IMG/VR virus record: IMGVR_UViG_3300028888_003076
Strand: one strand, 5' to 3'
Length of the DNA: 12,647 nt
Origin: a virus
Shown: positions 912 through 6,279 of the stretch, piece after piece
Position numbering within the stretch: the first letter of the stretch is position 1
How the letters are laid out: each line of letters opens with the position of its first letter
Translations under genes and position numbers: made by a program
Notes under the pieces: model-generated
Told to the model about the DNA's origin: nothing
Database searches by the model: none
The model's input: only the letters and a program-made list of their open reading frames with translations

Positions 912-3359
912 TTATTCATTACCGCCAATACTTTTTACGATACCATCAATAGGTAAACCGCGAAGAAGTTTATTAGTAACATCAGCAACGCTTTCGTCAT
1001 CCCCAGCAATAGAGTATGGAGCAACAGCATTAACAAGATTATTAGCAATTTCAGCATTAGCAGTTGCAGTAAGAGCTTCAATCAAACCAGGTCCAATAGA
1101 ATTCATAATTTTAGCAACAGTTTCAGCATAAGCGTTTTGCTTAGCCTTTTCAATTTCTAATAATTTATTCTTATAAAGAATTTCCTGATCTCTATCAGCC
1201 TGCTTACGTTTTCTTTCAGCATCAGCAATTGCATCACTCAGAACTTGAAGATCCTTTTCAGCCTGTTTAGAAGCAGTAGCTTCAGCTTCTTTAAGACGAT
1301 TAATTTCAGATTGAATATTAAGTTTATTAGTAGATTCAATACGATCAAGTTCAAGTTTATGAATCAGCTTTTGATTTCTGACTTCATACTCTTTCTTTTC
1401 TGCTTCCGCTAACTTGGTAGCGACTTCAACACGCTTATCAGCAGTAGAAAGTTCAAGAGCACGTTCAACCATATCATGCTGGTGCTCATTAAGCATAGAT
1501 TTAATTTCGCTTTCTACATCAATAGCAAGAACTTCGCAATCAGAAACATACATACCATTTTCAGGGAAGAAACGTCCAATATGCTTTGCCTTATCTGTAT
1601 CTTTTACCTCAGATTTATCACGGGCAATAGCTACATCTCTTACAATATCAATATAACGCTGATAAAATTCTTCAATAGTATAATTTTTAGCTGCTCTCTT
1701 TAATAAAGAACGCTCTCGATCGCACATAAATTTAACATAGTTATCAATATTAAACCAGCGATCCTGATACTTCTGATCAAAATCAACGCAATAAGATACT
1801 TTAATCCCGCAACGAACAAAATCTTTAGTCTCAACAGTTACAAAATCAGAAACTTTATTAGTTTCATGGCGTAAGAATACTGTATGAAGCAATTTATCTG
1901 TAGTTTTTGGCTTACCAGTAGAGAGCTGCAACTCTTCAAGAGTCTGATCATAATCCAGCATTACAGTCTGAGGGCCGCAAATCACTTTGCGATTACCATT
2001 CTTAGAGATAACATTTACAGCATATCCAGTCCAAACATCAACACTTACAATACCTTCATACTTAGTGTCAAGAGTAATAGTTCTAGGTTTGGTATAGCTA
2101 GTACCACGAGAAATATTAGCTTTAGCTTCTAAGTTTGCAAGAGTATCTCCCAGACTATTAGAAGTTGTGTAAGCAGTAAATTCATCAATAGAAATAGTTT
2201 TAAGTGATTTTTCAAGATTTTTTTCATTCAATTGCTCATTATAAGCAATTGCTTCAGCATTACCAGGATACATTAACTCGCACTGATGACGAGAGAGCTT
2301 ACGTTTTACGACAACTTCAAAACGAGGGTCAGGCAAATACATAAGAGGTCCGAGAACAGTTTTAATTTCGCCAGTTAATCTATTCATGATATATCGGCCT
2401 TCGCCCTTAGGAATAGCAATTGCGTGATGCATCATCTTACCATCGTAAGTAATAATAGCATGTTCAGGACGAGGATAATAAATCATCTGGTCTTTGCCAG
2501 TCAAAAATAACTCTTCACCTACTGGATGAATATTTTTCTTTTCATCAGTATATTCTGCAATTACTTTAATATAAATACCAGAAATAGGAGAAAGTTCAAC
2601 TGCACGGAATACATAACCACCCTTGGGGCTGGTTACAAAATTTTCAGTAGGTTTGGGAAATACAACAGCAGGACCATGAAGATAACGCTTATTGCCATCT
2701 TCATCCTTCAAAATACAGTATTCAAGACGCTCAAGAGTAACAGCATCACGGATATACCCATTACTGTCATCATTATTAATAGGAATTACTTCAATACCAG
2801 TAGGAGGAATGTAGAAAGAAACTTCAGTACCTTTAATTACAAGGATCTGACCATTAACATAAGTCTGCTGAGGATTCTCAATCAAATTACCTTCTGCATC
2901 TCGAATTTCGCCAATAGAATTACTAGCAGCATTAGCTTCATAAACACGAGCAAGAAGATATTGATTAGTTCGTAAAGCGTGACCACGAATAACCTTTGCC
3001 ATCTGACCAGGATAAAGAGCAAAACTTGCAGGACCAGTAATATTAATCTTTTTACCAATTTCCATCCCATCCGGTAAAACATTTGATGTACCAGCCGCCG
3101 GATGCTTATTGTCCTTAGCCGGATTCTTTAAAATAATATACCAGTTCTCTGGTGCAATAGTTAAAAGATGGACTGCATGTTCATAAGAACAAGGTTCAAA
3201 TCTCTTGGTTGTAGAATTAAATCTTACAAGACTATCACTTTGAGATAAAGACATTTTAGTCGGCCCAACTAAACAAGAAATAAAACCTTTAGTTGAGTCA
3301 AGAACATAGGCATATTCATTAGTAGAAAGAACTAAATCTTTCTAAATATTATCATTCAT
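912..3359 (-). CDS. Major vault protein (MVP)-like protein of about 815 aa. The true start is ATG 3359-3357, upstream of the track ORF 912..3254, and requires read-through of an in-frame TAG at 3344-3342.
   Basis: Recalled human MVP aligns along the whole length. The N-terminus YAYVLDSTKGFISCLVGPTKMSLSQSDSLVRF matches [43 protein letters not shown] matches PFPLYPGE. GEGRYIMNRLTGEIKTVLGPLMYL matches [51 protein letters not shown] matches [43 protein letters not shown] matches ITIETADHARLQLQLAY. RFFPENGMYVSDCEV matches AVFPQNGLVVSSVDV. A long cap-helix coiled coil follows, then SIGPGLIEAL matching AIGPSTIRDL. The RBS AAAGGAG (3374-3370) sits 10 nt before ATG 3359. The next in-frame ATG at 3254 has no RBS. 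The stop is TAA at 914-912. Confidence 0.8.
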
Positions 3360-3394
3360 TTATTTTTTTCTCCTTTATTATTTTTTCTATATAT

Positions 3395-3423
3395 ATTATA
3401 TCATTTTTTTATAAAAAAATCAA
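3395..3423 (-). promoter_or_regulatory. Class-I promoter TTGATT-N17-TGaTATAAT driving the MVP gene
   Basis: The -35 is at 3423-3418 and the -10 at 3400-3395, with an extended TG. The conserved leader atatatagaaaaaataataaaggag runs into the MVP RBS. Confidence 0.65.
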
Positions 3424-3432
3424 AGAAGAGAT

Positions 3433-3780
3433 TTATTTATCTTCTTTGATTTTCGCATATTCTTGTATAAAACGTAATCCTTCTATTGCGTATCTTTGTC
3501 TTTGATCCTCATACCGATAATTTTCTTCTGTTAACTAGGGATCTTCTTCAATGATTTGACGATGACCTTCAATAAGGTCTTGTTCAAATTGTTGTTCTTC
3601 TTCTGTGGGTTCATATTTAGGATCTTTTGCTACTTTTACTAAAAATGCAATAAATTTTTCTGTTTCTTCATCATCAATTAAATATTCACCTTTAATACAA
3701 AAGTTATACCATTTTTTAACAGGGATTGCAATTAACTAAAATAGAATTGAAAAAAAATCTTTTAAAAATGAATACATCAT
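3433..3780 (-). CDS. Hypothetical 115-aa protein with an N-terminal hydrophobic segment and an acidic C-terminus. It contains two in-frame TAG codons.
   Basis: ATG ATG at 3780-3775 is preceded by the RBS AAAGGAAC 8 nt upstream. The frame runs to TAA at 3435-3433 only if the TAGs at 3738-3736 and 3537-3535 are read as sense. With TAG as a stop, no ORF of 60 aa or more exists here, which explains the gap in the track. Confidence 0.55.
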
Positions 3781-3836
3781 AATGGGTGTTCCTTTCTTTA
3801 TAGTCAAATAAAAATCGTATTTATTCTTTTATAAAT

Positions 3837-3865
3837 TTGACTATCTCTAAAAAATTTTGTAAAAT
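3837..3865 (+). promoter_or_regulatory. Plus-strand promoter TTGACT-N17-TAAAAT for the FNT-like gene
   Basis: The -35 is ttgact at 3837-3842. A 17-nt spacer follows, then taaaat at 3860-3865. The RBS gaagga and ATG 3890 lie downstream. Confidence 0.5.
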
Positions 3866-3889
3866 AATTAGTGAAGGATGTGATATTAA

Positions 3890-5322: not shown

Positions 5323-5408
5323 TATGAAAATCTGTATATTTTTGTTAAAATAAAATATATTAAAATTTTACAACTTTTTAGGCAAGTTTAAATGCCTATC
5401 TTTTTTGG

Positions 5409-5433
5409 TATGTCAAAGACCTTTAAAGACATA
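5409..5433. promoter_or_regulatory. Composite palindrome tatgtcAAAGACCTTTAAAGgacata, a candidate operator for the adjacent RHH regulator
   Basis: Inverted arms tatgtc/gacata flank an internal cTTTAAAg palindrome. The element lies 13 nt upstream of the ATG at 5446. Confidence 0.35.
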
Positions 5434-5445
5434 CCTAAATCCGCA

Positions 5446-5643
5446 ATGGAAAGGATTGAAATATTTTTGGAAGATAAGAAAGTGCATTAGATATCGGTGA
5501 AATTAACTACGGAAGAGTATGGCTGGTTAGTGCGATATTGTGATAAACACGATGTATCTATGGCTAGTATAATTAGAAAAGGTTTCCGTATGTATAGAAC
5601 CGCAGTAAGTAAAAATAGTAAAACTACTAACAAATAGTAGTAA
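5446..5643 (+). CDS. Ribbon-helix-helix (CopG/Arc/MetJ-like) DNA-binding protein of about 65 aa (alternative starts 5392 or 5410). It has one internal TAG and ends ...NK-TAG-TAG-TAA.
   Basis: The motif ISVKLTTEEYGWLVRYCDKHDVSMASIIRKGF has the RHH beta-strand plus helix A signature. The beta-strand gets its N-terminal context only by reading through the TAG at 5488-5490. The ORF ends with TAG TAG TAA at 5635-5643. Confidence 0.5.
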
Positions 5644-5665
5644 AGGAAGAGAGAACAAATAACAA

Positions 5666-5839
5666 ATGAAACAAAAGATTATATTTTCAAAACAAATTAT
5701 GTTAGGTCTATTGGAAAAAGGATTTCGTCCAATAGAGTCATTCCCGAATCCTACTAATCCAAAGTATTTGGCTTGGGCTTTTGAAGAAAGTGATGCTCTT
5801 GAAGAAGCATTTGCGGAAGTCCTTGCGCAAAGGGGGTAA
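5666..5839 (+). CDS. Hypothetical 57-aa protein (MKQKIIFSKQIMLGLLEKGFRPIESFPNPTNPKYLAWAFEESDALEEAFAEVLAQRG)
   Basis: The RBS aaggaagagag precedes ATG 5666. The stop is TAA at 5837-5839. The gene sits between the RHH gene and the initiator gene. Confidence 0.5.
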   Translation: MKQKIIFSKQIMLGLLEKGFRPIESFPNPTNPKYLAWAFEESDALEEAFAEVLAQRG

Positions 5840-5844
5840 TAATC

Positions 5845-6279
5845 TTGGCAACGACTTATAGAAATTCAAAGATTATTTATCCTGGATATGAGGCTTTAAA
5901 AGATACGACGCATCATTATTATAGATTAAGTGCGGCAGCATTTGAGAAAGTTGTGAAAGAGTGCAAGCCTTTTGAAGTTTATTTATGGATTTATTGTCAT
6001 AGGATTAAAGATAGTTGGGCTTTTAGTCCATAGGCTTTAATTGAGGAATTTGGGGGTAGTGATAAAAGTTGGCGTGAAGCTAGATAGGGATTAGAGAATA
6101 AGGGATATCTCGTTTAGATTTCTGGTAATGGATATAGATTTGATGAAGTGCCGCAGACTTATGAAAAGGATAAGTTGAAAGTCATATTGAGTTATGAGGT
6201 TGATAAAGATGCTGAATGGATAGAAAAAGATGTCGTGCGGCTTAGCGATGGAGAGTTAAGACGAGTTTAGACATTTTAA
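5845..6279 (+). CDS. Winged-helix replication initiator / replisome-organizer-like protein of about 144 aa, with a TTG start and four in-frame TAG codons
   Basis: The strong RBS AAGGGGG (5830-5836) lies 8 nt before TTG 5845. The motif LWIYCHRIKDSWAFSP[TAG]ALIEEFGGSDKSWREAR[TAG]GLENKGYLV[TAG]ISGNGYRF is a wHTH of the RepA / phage replisome-organizer N-terminal type. The frame continues through the TAGs at 6031, 6085, 6115 and 6268 to TAA at 6277-6279. The iteron array begins 50 bp downstream. Track ORF 5845..6033 is its N-terminal fragment. Confidence 0.55.

Follow-up and report, generated by a model that had tools for sequence, protein, structure and literature searches.

A TAG-free, promoter-dense block beside TAG-recoded, AT-rich DNA in a jumbo phage, a layout compatible with code-gated gene timing

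Why do all genes that carry TAG codons in frame in one piece of phage DNA lie on one side of it, and the genes behind a different class of promoters, free of such codons, on the other? The question is raised by a 12,647-nt stretch of viral DNA (IMG/VR record IMGVR_UViG_3300028888_003076), referred to below as the window, for which a first-pass annotation, made from the sequence alone, proposed either that recoding gates a temporal class of genes or that the border is a mosaic junction. The window derives from a jumbo phage (~240 kb), a close relative of a 239,565-bp IMG/VR contig (the sister contig, 97–99% identical to the window), of which we read positions 112,288–181,001 (69 kb, 29%); another relative, contig L052, is 87% identical to the window. 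When the entire window was compared by megablast with collections of phages and plasmids, no match emerged, and exact-protein look-ups of the window proteins returned one 2-kb contig or no match. The proposed bipartition proved to be real and to reach far outside the window, while the GC figures, the border position and the gene count given for it turned out to be wrong.

The window contains 16 in-frame TAG codons in six genes, all of them within 3342–6279 and 15 of the 16 within 3433–6279, in agreement with the assignment of all TAG-containing genes to positions 912–6279; none is found in the credible genes of 8820–12617. The largest of the six encodes a major-vault-protein-like protein (MVP; 912–3359, minus strand, 815 codons; Pfam MVP_shoulder and Vault_3; synonymous/non-synonymous changes 6/1), whose true start is the ATG at 3357–3359 and whose single in-frame TAG is codon 6 (3342–3344). 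It is accompanied by a gene for a 115-aa protein (3433–3780, minus strand, TAG codons 15 and 82), the ORF of which is intact in L052, by a formate/nitrite-transporter-like (FNT-like) gene (3890–4591, plus strand, TAG codons 45, 52, 127 and 211), in which the Pfam match (PF01226) runs across the TAGs, and by a gene for a Cys-rich 131-aa protein (4446–4841, minus strand, TAG codons 19 and 73; synonymous/non-synonymous changes 4/0 and 24/14), which overlaps the tail of the FNT-like gene convergently by 146 nt. The remaining two encode an RHH-type regulator (5392–5643, plus strand, TAG codon 33), which matches PHROG 876, a transcriptional repressor (E=2e-5), and ends with TAG TAG immediately before the TAA stop, and an initiator-like protein (5845–6279, plus strand, TTG start, 144 codons, TAG codons 63, 81, 91 and 142), which has four TAG codons versus one CAA/CAG.

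Comparison with relatives shows that TAG is read as glutamine in this phage. Codon 6 of the MVP gene stands opposite CAA/CAG Gln codons in ~30 relatives, and TAG codons 45, 52 and 127 of the FNT-like gene correspond to conserved Q residues in homologues; the Q residues of the closest FNT homologues were not counted as independent evidence, because their source probably translated them with code 15. Between the window and L052 there are two swaps of TAG and CAA (codon 114 of the FNT-like gene, CAA in the window and TAG in L052; codon 73 of the Cys-rich gene, TAG in the window and CAA in L052), and two further TAG positions stand opposite GAA and TTG (codon 82 of the 115-aa gene is TAG in the window and GAA in L052). 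The TAG-bearing ORFs exhibit a pN/pS of ~0.06, indicative of purifying selection, and none of the six is interrupted by TAA or TGA in the window, in the 97–99% identical relative or in L052. No gene in the window terminates in TAG, and treating TAG as a sense codon increases the coding coverage from 0.675 to 0.809 in the window and from 0.635 to 0.755 in AT-rich DNA of the sister contig. Recoding of TGA was also considered and rejected; the interruptions of the ORFs are TAG only, never TGA.

The statement that the recoded genes cluster in the left part of the window holds for the TAG codons (16 on the left versus 0 on the right), but six left-hand genes contain no TAG: 86–472, 475–816, two genes (5041–5259 and 4795–5040, minus strand) at the head of the operon that includes the Cys-rich gene, a 57-aa gene (5666–5839, plus strand) and a 130-aa gene (7319–7711, minus strand), the last of which follows a promoter of the left class described below and lies in a more divergent segment (pS 0.12). 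Downstream of MVP, ~1,700 consecutive AT-rich codons (GC3 0.09–0.25) include no TAG, and MVP itself, a family-wide conserved gene, has no TAG in 33 of 34 relatives; TAG use is therefore patchy and not class-wide. The TAG-bearing genes identified outside the window have no Pfam match and no recognizable function.

The right part of the window had been credited with about 15 TAG-free genes. The absence of TAG was confirmed, but only 11 genes are credible, and two ORFs (9340–9579 and 10821–10991) are probably not genes, as judged from their synonymous/non-synonymous changes (0/6 and 1/5). The 11 credible genes (8820–12617, all on the minus strand) exhibit neither an in-frame TAG nor a TAG stop. 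They comprise nine small genes (8820–9065, 9062–9214, 9174–9377, 9636–9824, 9918–10151, 10108–10389, 10391–10567, 10572–10742 and 11725–11931) and a DEDD exonuclease-like gene (11024–11728), served by early-type promoters on the same strand with ends at 9650, 9884, 10811, 11783 and 11991, as well as a gene for a 127-aa protein with a GC content of 54% (12234–12617). Counted per codon, the difference between the left and the right side (16/2102 vs 0/973) is significant (Fisher one-sided p=0.002); counted per Gln codon in the window alone (16/83 vs 0/16) it is marginal (p ~0.03), because the genes of the right module are Gln-poor.

In the sister contig, the right module is seen to be the end of a ~39-kb block of small genes on a single strand, and each of them follows a host sigma-70 promoter that is nearly perfect. 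When ORFs were called greedily on both strands with TAG as sense, spurious antisense ORFs arose in this block, and a sense-strand analysis was used instead. In the 33 kb analyzed, 72 sense-strand ORFs (6,890 codons) end with TAA (57), TGA (13) or TAG (2), the sense-strand coverage hardly changes when TAG is treated as sense (0.632 to 0.657), and all seven TAGs inside the TAG-sense ORF calls look spurious on inspection. As in-frame TAG is absent and TAG is hardly used as a stop, the block is translatable under the standard code. It encodes tRNAs that serve the A-ending codons TTA, AAA and GAA.

The block is also delimited by its promoters. About 90 promoters of the early type, TTGACA-N17-(TG)nTATAAT, lie on one strand between positions 115,067 and 153,971 of the sister contig, while from 154,196 on there are left-class promoters only. 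Five perfect TTGACA-N17-TATAAT sites are present in the window, where 0.03 would be expected, along with four 11/12 sites, which bears out the earlier assignment of the right-hand genes to TTGACA-N17-TGnTATAAT promoters. Throughout the phage family the left-class promoter keeps a 45-nt signature, TTGAww followed by an AT-only spacer, TATAAT and then ATATATAGAAAA, and it is found in AT-rich DNA on both sides of the block. In the window it occurs on the minus strand upstream of the TAG-free gene 475–816 (824–864; TTGAAA, an AT-only 17-nt spacer, TATAAT and ATTTATAGAAAA), of the MVP gene (3383–3423) and of the 5259–4446 operon (5282–5322), and once more at 7734–7774, the site closest to the early block. 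What distinguishes the two classes is the -35 box, the spacer and the downstream block; a sigma-70-type -10 box and the 17-nt spacing are common to both. The last two early-type promoters (7971–7999, 12/12, and 8246–8274, 11/12; minus strand) have no ORF behind them and form the edge of the early block, so that the promoter-class border lies at ~7,790–8,020 and not at 8820, where the right module had been said to begin. The contrast in GC content, given as ~28% versus 40–50%, was likewise overstated: we measured 32.3% for 1–7990 and 38.3% for 7991–12647 (GC3 0.24 vs 0.37), and just the last 650 nt reach 49%. For the whole ~39-kb block the GC content is 39.5%, compared to 26.8% and 31.7% in the flanks.

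The sole tRNA in the window, a tRNA-Glu(UUC) (12114–12190, minus strand), is not a suppressor. Neither the window nor the set of 14 tRNA genes found in the 69 kb of the sister contig includes a CUA suppressor; relaxed ARAGORN settings gave implausible calls only, and the sister contig was absent among the matches listed in a scan with a generic suppressor-tRNA pattern. Suppressor tRNA(CUA) genes are present in nine related MVP loci, and in two of them (L003 and L018) they follow promoters with the left signature, i.e. of the AT-rich class. An odd tRNA-like gene with an 8-nt loop, AGGUCUAA, occurs at L174:18564–18655.

Temporal gating by the genetic code would fit this arrangement. In the explanation that we consider the best, and fairly probable, the consensus-promoter block is expressed early under the standard code, and the TAG-Gln operons in the AT-rich DNA are completed after the suppressor has appeared. 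Host RNA polymerase would transcribe the block first and unmodified host ribosomes would make its products, while the TAG-containing proteins would be finished only after a phage suppressor tRNA(CUA) has become available; in the two related lineages one AT-rich promoter class precedes both the suppressor and the TAG genes, which would couple them. We infer the 'early' status and the timing of the block from promoter sequence only. Against gating we counted the sigma-70-type -10 box and 17-nt spacing common to both promoter classes, and the many AT-rich genes that lack TAG in spite of their left-class promoters. The recoded genes also depart from the expectation that they should be late structural or lysis genes, as they encode the FNT-like, RHH-type, initiator-like, Cys-rich and 115-aa proteins.

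Alternatively, the TAG-free block could have been acquired or exchanged by recombination, in which case its lack of TAG would be inherited from a standard-code source and would not serve timing; we regard this mosaic origin as possible, but unlikely. The step in GC and GC3 (0.24 vs 0.37) is sharp and held over tens of kb, and the synonymous divergence (pS) from the sister strain is discontinuous across the border, with 0.015 for 86–6279, 0.119 for 7319–7711 and 0.076 for 8820–12617. Such a 5–8-fold jump points to recombination, with a breakpoint within 6279–7319. In L052 the MVP cassette is missing and an HNH gene is inserted, and the neighbors seen here are common to 0 of the 33 other MVP-carrying loci (all MVP loci found except L002). 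The pS jump and the gains and losses of cassettes thus lend independent support to the suggestion of a mosaic junction, and inter-strain recombination also has a hot spot at the border. However, TAG stops are nearly absent from the block too (2 of 72), which is unexpected for a recent import from a standard-code source; roughly 15% TAG stops are expected in the DNA of a standard-code genome. Moreover, the pS breakpoint lies ~1 kb off the promoter/GC border (~7,800–8,000), and the block is flanked on either side by AT-rich DNA of the same genome and has tRNAs for TTA, AAA and GAA. Mosaic history and code gating are mutually compatible.

It is clearly improbable that composition alone accounts for the pattern, with TAG arising as CAG drifts from C to T in AT-rich DNA, and with a GC-richer right module encoding small, acidic, Gln-poor proteins. 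Gln codons do amount to 1.6% in the right module versus 3.9% in the left, and the TAG-rich genes are among the AT-rich ones; however, the called sense-strand ORFs of the early block contain, in 4,400 codons, ~97 CAA/CAG codons and no real-looking sense TAG, and the TAG-free genes downstream of MVP are equally AT-rich, so GC content is no predictor of TAG use. Least of all can we credit the reading without recoding, in which the ORFs of 3342–6279 belong to an inserted plasmid-like element and are pseudogenes in the process of decay: the TAG island has no counterpart at other MVP-carrying loci and the initiator-like protein has a single homologue among 5.8 billion proteins, but all 16 interruptions are TAG, with TAA, TGA and frameshifts absent despite the AT-rich DNA, the ORFs stay intact in a relative 13% divergent, their substitutions are mainly synonymous and the Pfam FNT match spans the TAG positions, and we therefore rejected this extremely improbable explanation.

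The preferred reading, an early standard-code block followed by suppressor-dependent operons, has parallels in known systems. In phages T4 and T5, the early regions are transcribed by the host sigma-70 polymerase from dense, strong consensus promoters on one strand, comprise many small genes of no known function and are followed by a region with a different promoter consensus. The phage described here shares the one-strand array of consensus promoters and the subsequent region of another promoter class, but its array is very dense (~90 near-perfect promoters in 39 kb, several without an ORF behind), its second promoter class retains a sigma-70-type -10 box, and neither a sigma factor, an activator nor an RNA polymerase of phage origin was identified. 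Multi-code gene finders such as MgCod allow the genetic code to differ between blocks of a single phage genome, and here too a contiguous block fits code 11 best and its neighbors code 15; unlike in such models, the 'code 11' block is rather TAG-avoiding, with TAG stops almost unused.

The layout of a TAG-free, promoter-dense block beside TAG-recoded AT-rich DNA is already known in stop-reassigning phages, of which the present genome is a new, clear example. The model of Borges et al. (bioRxiv 10.1101/2021.08.26.457843) holds that translation starts with genes readable in the standard code, before the suppressor appears; the preprint notes that replication genes are variably recoded, and the phages, partially TAG-recoded (code 15), come from gut and rumen and belong to the crAss-like, Lak, Garnet, Amethyst, Sapphire and Topaz clades. 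The similarities are that TAG specifies an amino acid in a fraction of the genes, that a standard-code block is proposed to come first, that TAG stops are depleted, that a suppressor tRNA(CUA) occurs in the phage family, and that the genomes are large and come from animal gut-type samples. The differences are that the recoded genes here form a replicon-like module plus a transporter and are not lysis or structural genes, that no suppressor was located in the window or in the 69 kb of the sister contig, and that a clear switch of promoter class and a GC step of 8–13 points fall together with the code split, which the preprint is not known to describe. Partial stop recoding as a timing device is a hypothesis that has rested on gene annotation, for which this genome provides a clean sequence-level handle: each promoter class is predicted to have its own timing, and the initiator-like and similar proteins should depend on the suppressor. 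As the window demonstrates, recoding is not confined to lysis or structural genes.

The TAG-rich island (3433–6279) combines a plasmid-like replicon with a transporter and does not consist of late structural genes. Downstream of the initiator-like gene there are ~12 iterons CGGTAAAwwTTACCG (6320–6745), followed by an AT-only stretch (6745–6860), which together (6320–6860) probably constitute a replication origin. The initiator-like protein matches PHROG 270 and 186 (E ~1e-4; synonymous/non-synonymous changes 2/0 and 11/5), tblastn searches with it against plasmids and phages gave no match, one homologue was found in a database of 5.8 billion proteins, and the AlphaFold model of that homologue is unusable (pLDDT 37.5); because homology searches and modeling were uninformative, the label 'initiator' relies on weak PHROG matches and the adjacent iterons. 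It is conceivable, if rather doubtful, that the RHH-type regulator, the small protein, the initiator, the ~12 iterons and the AT-rich region form a self-contained plasmid-type replicon whose origin firing is code-switched. If so, this mode of replication, or the entry into or exit from a plasmid-like state, would occur only with the suppressor tRNA present, and code gating would be extended from lysis timing to the control of replication.

On the plus strand, opposite to the other early-type promoters, a perfect consensus promoter precedes a predicted ~80-nt RNA with two hairpins and a T-run (z = -3.2); promoter and RNA together occupy 8713–8826.

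Searches of the GenBank phage and PLSDB plasmid collections revealed no close match to the window, and the 780-aa open reading frame (ORF) of the window, used as a query, identified 34 loci in IMG/VR. The best of them, IMGVR_UViG_3300028805_000039 (239,565 bp; hereafter the sister contig), lies in reverse orientation and is 99.3% identical to window positions 1–6673 and 97.3% identical to positions 6591–12647, which indicates that the window belongs to a jumbo phage, with the contig representing a sister strain. The portion of the sister contig analyzed here comprises positions 112,288–181,001 (68.7 kb, 29%). 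A second relative, the ENA contig ERZ1029111:k87_36758801 (L052), is about 87% identical to the window.

Under the standard code the region 3342–8800 is nearly empty of ORFs, and the coding coverage of the window rises from 0.675 to 0.809 once TAG is read as a sense codon. In-frame TAGs are then found in the gene for a major vault protein-like product (MVP; 912–3359, minus strand, codon 6), a 115-aa gene (3433–3780, minus strand, codons 15 and 82), a formate/nitrite transporter-like gene (FNT; 3890–4591, plus strand, codons 45, 52, 127 and 211), a Cys-rich gene (4446–4841, minus strand, codons 19 and 73), an RHH-type regulator gene (5392–5643, plus strand, codon 33, with TAG TAG preceding the terminal TAA) and an initiator-like gene (5845–6279, plus strand, codons 63, 81, 91 and 142). 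All interruptions of these ORFs are TAG, with no TAA, TGA or frameshift in the window, the 97–99% identical strain or the 87% identical relative. Substitutions relative to the sister strain are overwhelmingly synonymous (pN/pS 0.06; synonymous/nonsynonymous counts 4/0 in the Cys-rich gene, 2/0 in the initiator-like gene and 6/1 in MVP), and the corresponding counts relative to L052 are 24/14 in the Cys-rich and 11/5 in the initiator-like gene. Three TAGs fall inside the Pfam formate/nitrite-transporter match, and the TAG of MVP occupies the position of a glutamine encoded by CAA/CAG and conserved in about 30 relatives, in the context M-x-D-N-x-Q-K-D-L-V-L-S. L052 retains 11 of the 16 TAGs of the window and has CAA, GAA and TTG at one position each, as well as a TAG at one position where the window has CAA. 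Taken together, the TAG-only interruptions, the synonymous substitutions, the Pfam match and the alignment with glutamine make the predicted reading of TAG as glutamine (genetic code 15) well established for this phage. The predicted MVP start likewise needs a sense TAG, since the first start codon after it is Met-36 (ATG at 3254), and the standard-code reading would lose 29 residues conserved in the relatives. The possibility that the interrupted ORFs are pseudogenes is excluded by the restriction of interruptions to TAG, the mostly synonymous change and the glutamine at TAG positions. The end of the RHH gene (5635–5643), TAG TAG TAA, is conserved in both relatives and would specify two extra glutamines under code 15 and a triple stop under the standard code.

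The first-pass annotation described a cluster of TAG-containing genes on the left and a TAG-free module of "15 or so" genes from 8820 onward. The absence of TAG from the right module is borne out, but the gene count included two probable non-genes: the ORFs 9340–9579 and 10821–10991, with synonymous/nonsynonymous counts of 0/6 and 1/5, are probably not genes. The 11 credible genes at 8820–12617 (973 codons) contain no in-frame TAG and all end with TAA or TGA, versus 16 TAGs in 2,102 codons of the left genes (Fisher P = 0.002); in the window alone the contrast per glutamine codon is marginal, because the right-module proteins are poor in glutamine (16 CAA/CAG). The absence of sense TAG is settled by the sister contig, in which a 33-kb portion of the same early block holds 72 sense-strand ORFs (6,890 codons). 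Reading TAG as sense changes its coverage there from 0.632 to 0.657, with nothing real gained, versus an increase from 0.635 to 0.755 in the AT-rich part of the contig. The stops of the early block (57 TAA, 13 TGA and 2 TAG) indicate that the block also avoids TAG for termination. One early-block gene (sister contig 146,774–147,304; sequences L036/L050 read from it; 176 aa) ends with a TAG in frame with the next ORF, and in the presence of a suppressor it would yield a readthrough fusion 108 codons longer. The ORFs 9174–9377 and 9340–9579 (minus strand) form a single 130-aa ORF in the IMG/VR strain, owing to an indel near 9378; one of the two sequences carries either a frameshift or a misassembly here.

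The distinct promoter class attributed to the right module is confirmed. Five perfect TTGACA-N17-TATAAT sites are found in the window versus 0.03 expected, along with four sites matching at 11 of 12 positions, and most of the consensus promoters carry the TGn extension. About 90 such promoters, with mutually unrelated spacers, occur on one strand of the sister contig at 115,067–153,971; a second type takes over from 154,196 (window ~7,793) onward and upstream of 115,000. This type consists of TTGAAA/TTGAAT/TTGATT, an AT-only spacer (TTTTAAAAAAATATTA), TATAAT and then ATATATAGAAAA, and several copies run on to an AAAGGAG ribosome-binding site right before the start codon. Its copies in the window lie at 824–864, 3383–3423, 5282–5322 and 7734–7774, and its recurrence at equivalent sites near MVP in many relatives marks it as a family-specific promoter. 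The −10 element and spacing are still of the sigma-70 type; the label of a different class is correct for these left-class promoters, and different timing does not follow from class alone. The border between the classes lies at about 7,800–8,000 and not at 8,820, as early-type promoters are present at 7999 and 8274 (minus strand), followed by 200–250 nt without an ORF. A large-scale step in GC content is also real, although the contrast of 28% versus 40–50% was overstated: the values are 32.3% for 1–7990 and 38.3% for 7991–12647, with 49% reached at 12001–12647, and the sister contig shows 39.5% in the early block and 26.8% and 31.7% in its flanks. The GC3 of the window rises from 0.24 in the left part to 0.37 in the right part. 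The share of GAA among glutamate codons is significantly higher in the AT-rich genes (GAA:GAG 131:36) than in the right module (61:33, P = 0.02).

The layout is a genuine and strong feature of the genome and an instance of a known pattern: according to a preprint on stop-reassigned phages (bioRxiv 10.1101/2021.08.26.457843), such phages keep standard-code-compatible genes that are thought to be expressed first. The present case adds that the border coincides cleanly with the promoter switch and the GC step, that the early block is notable for its size and promoter density, and that the recoded genes form a replicon-like module. Temporal gating, as proposed in the first-pass annotation, may be inferred from this layout.

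The left cluster itself, with 16 TAGs in six genes, stands only in part, for TAG use is patchy rather than bipartite. Fifteen of the 16 TAGs lie within 3433–6279, and six left-hand genes of the window are TAG-free, which implies that left-class promoters drive both kinds of gene. In the plus-strand FNT, RHH and initiator-like genes TAG is a major or the main glutamine codon (11 TAG vs 8 CAA/CAG). MVP has a single TAG in the window and none in 33 of 34 relatives. An uninterrupted run of about 1,700 AT-rich codons downstream of MVP in the sister contig is likewise TAG-free; beyond it, three genes without assigned function carry another 11 clustered TAGs. The TAG-rich island has the layout of a plasmid-type replicon (5392–6860), comprising the RHH regulator (PHROG 876, E = 2e-5), a 57-aa ORF, the 144-aa initiator-like protein with a TTG start (weak matches to replication-initiator/DnaD-like PHROGs, E about 1e-4) and about 12 iterons CGGTAAAwwTTACCG (6320–6745), followed by an AT-only stretch. 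The initiator label is tentative, since the protein has one homolog only in a database of 5.8 billion proteins and no match among plasmids and phages, and its structure model was unusable. The published model of recoded phages stresses late structural and lysis genes, from which the island genes differ; replication genes are variably recoded according to the same preprint. The FNT-like and Cys-rich genes overlap tail-to-tail by 146 nt (4446–4591), where the three strain differences are all silent for the Cys-rich protein and alter the FNT protein; some homologs lack the FNT tail. MVP and its promoter form a 2.5-kb cassette (858–3366) flanked by two left-class promoter copies. At least 34 large phage contigs carry conserved homologs of MVP (Pfam MVP_shoulder, Vault_3), and a literature text search found no paper connecting MVP with jumbo phages.

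Compared with the sister strain, the synonymous divergence amounts to 0.015 at 86–6279, 0.119 at 7319–7711 and 0.076 at 8820–12617, with equally low pN/pS in all three segments. This 5–8 fold jump implies recombination between the two strains within the iteron and AT-rich region, so that 6279–7319 marks a recent breakpoint, about 1 kb from the promoter/GC border. L052 lacks the entire MVP cassette (L052:9478–9526) and carries an HNH_3 endonuclease gene (L052:14998–15615) inserted exactly at the early-block edge (window 8793–8901), and the other genes of the window occur in none of the 33 other MVP-carrying loci. Jointly with the jump in divergence, these features thus point to a recombination hot spot. 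A recent import of the early block from a standard-code phage is argued against by the near-absence of TAG stops there.

The only tRNA gene in the window encodes tRNA-Glu(UUC) (12114–12190). Within the analyzed 69 kb of sister contig, the early block encodes Leu-UAA, two Lys-UUU and Glu-UUC, all reading A-ending codons, and nine additional tRNA genes are clustered in the AT-rich part; no CUA anticodon was found in the window or these 69 kb. A tRNA(CUA) is present in nine related MVP loci, 2–6 kb upstream of MVP. In one of the MVP-carrying loci (L003) one copy lies directly behind a left-class promoter, and in another (L018) the suppressor ends a short operon whose promoter has the left-class spacer and downstream signature. 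These other genomes hint that the suppressor and the TAG-containing genes share regulation. In the sister contig, a tRNA-like gene (L174:18564–18655; contig positions about 179,199–179,290) that has 17 nt inserted in its D-loop and whose 8-nt anticodon loop AGGUCUAA contains CUA is a candidate suppressor, although only a lead. The tRNA cluster at L174:14804–20345 (sister contig ~175.4–181.0 kb) lies behind a variant left-class promoter and includes this tRNA-like gene, a ROOL RNA (RF03087, 292 bits) and a below-threshold YrlA-like element.

Units of a promoter plus non-coding sequence are found repeatedly in the sister contig, where the start of the transcribed sequence is conserved (e.g. aagtatgtaag, ataattgttcca, aataattgtcaa), and these units, like those at the border (window 7780–8274), may encode small RNAs. 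A perfect TTGACA-N17-TGnTATAAT promoter also lies on the strand opposite to the early genes (8713–8826, plus strand); the RNA of about 80 nt predicted behind it has no match in Rfam; it would fold into two GC-rich hairpins (z = −3.2) and includes a T-run.
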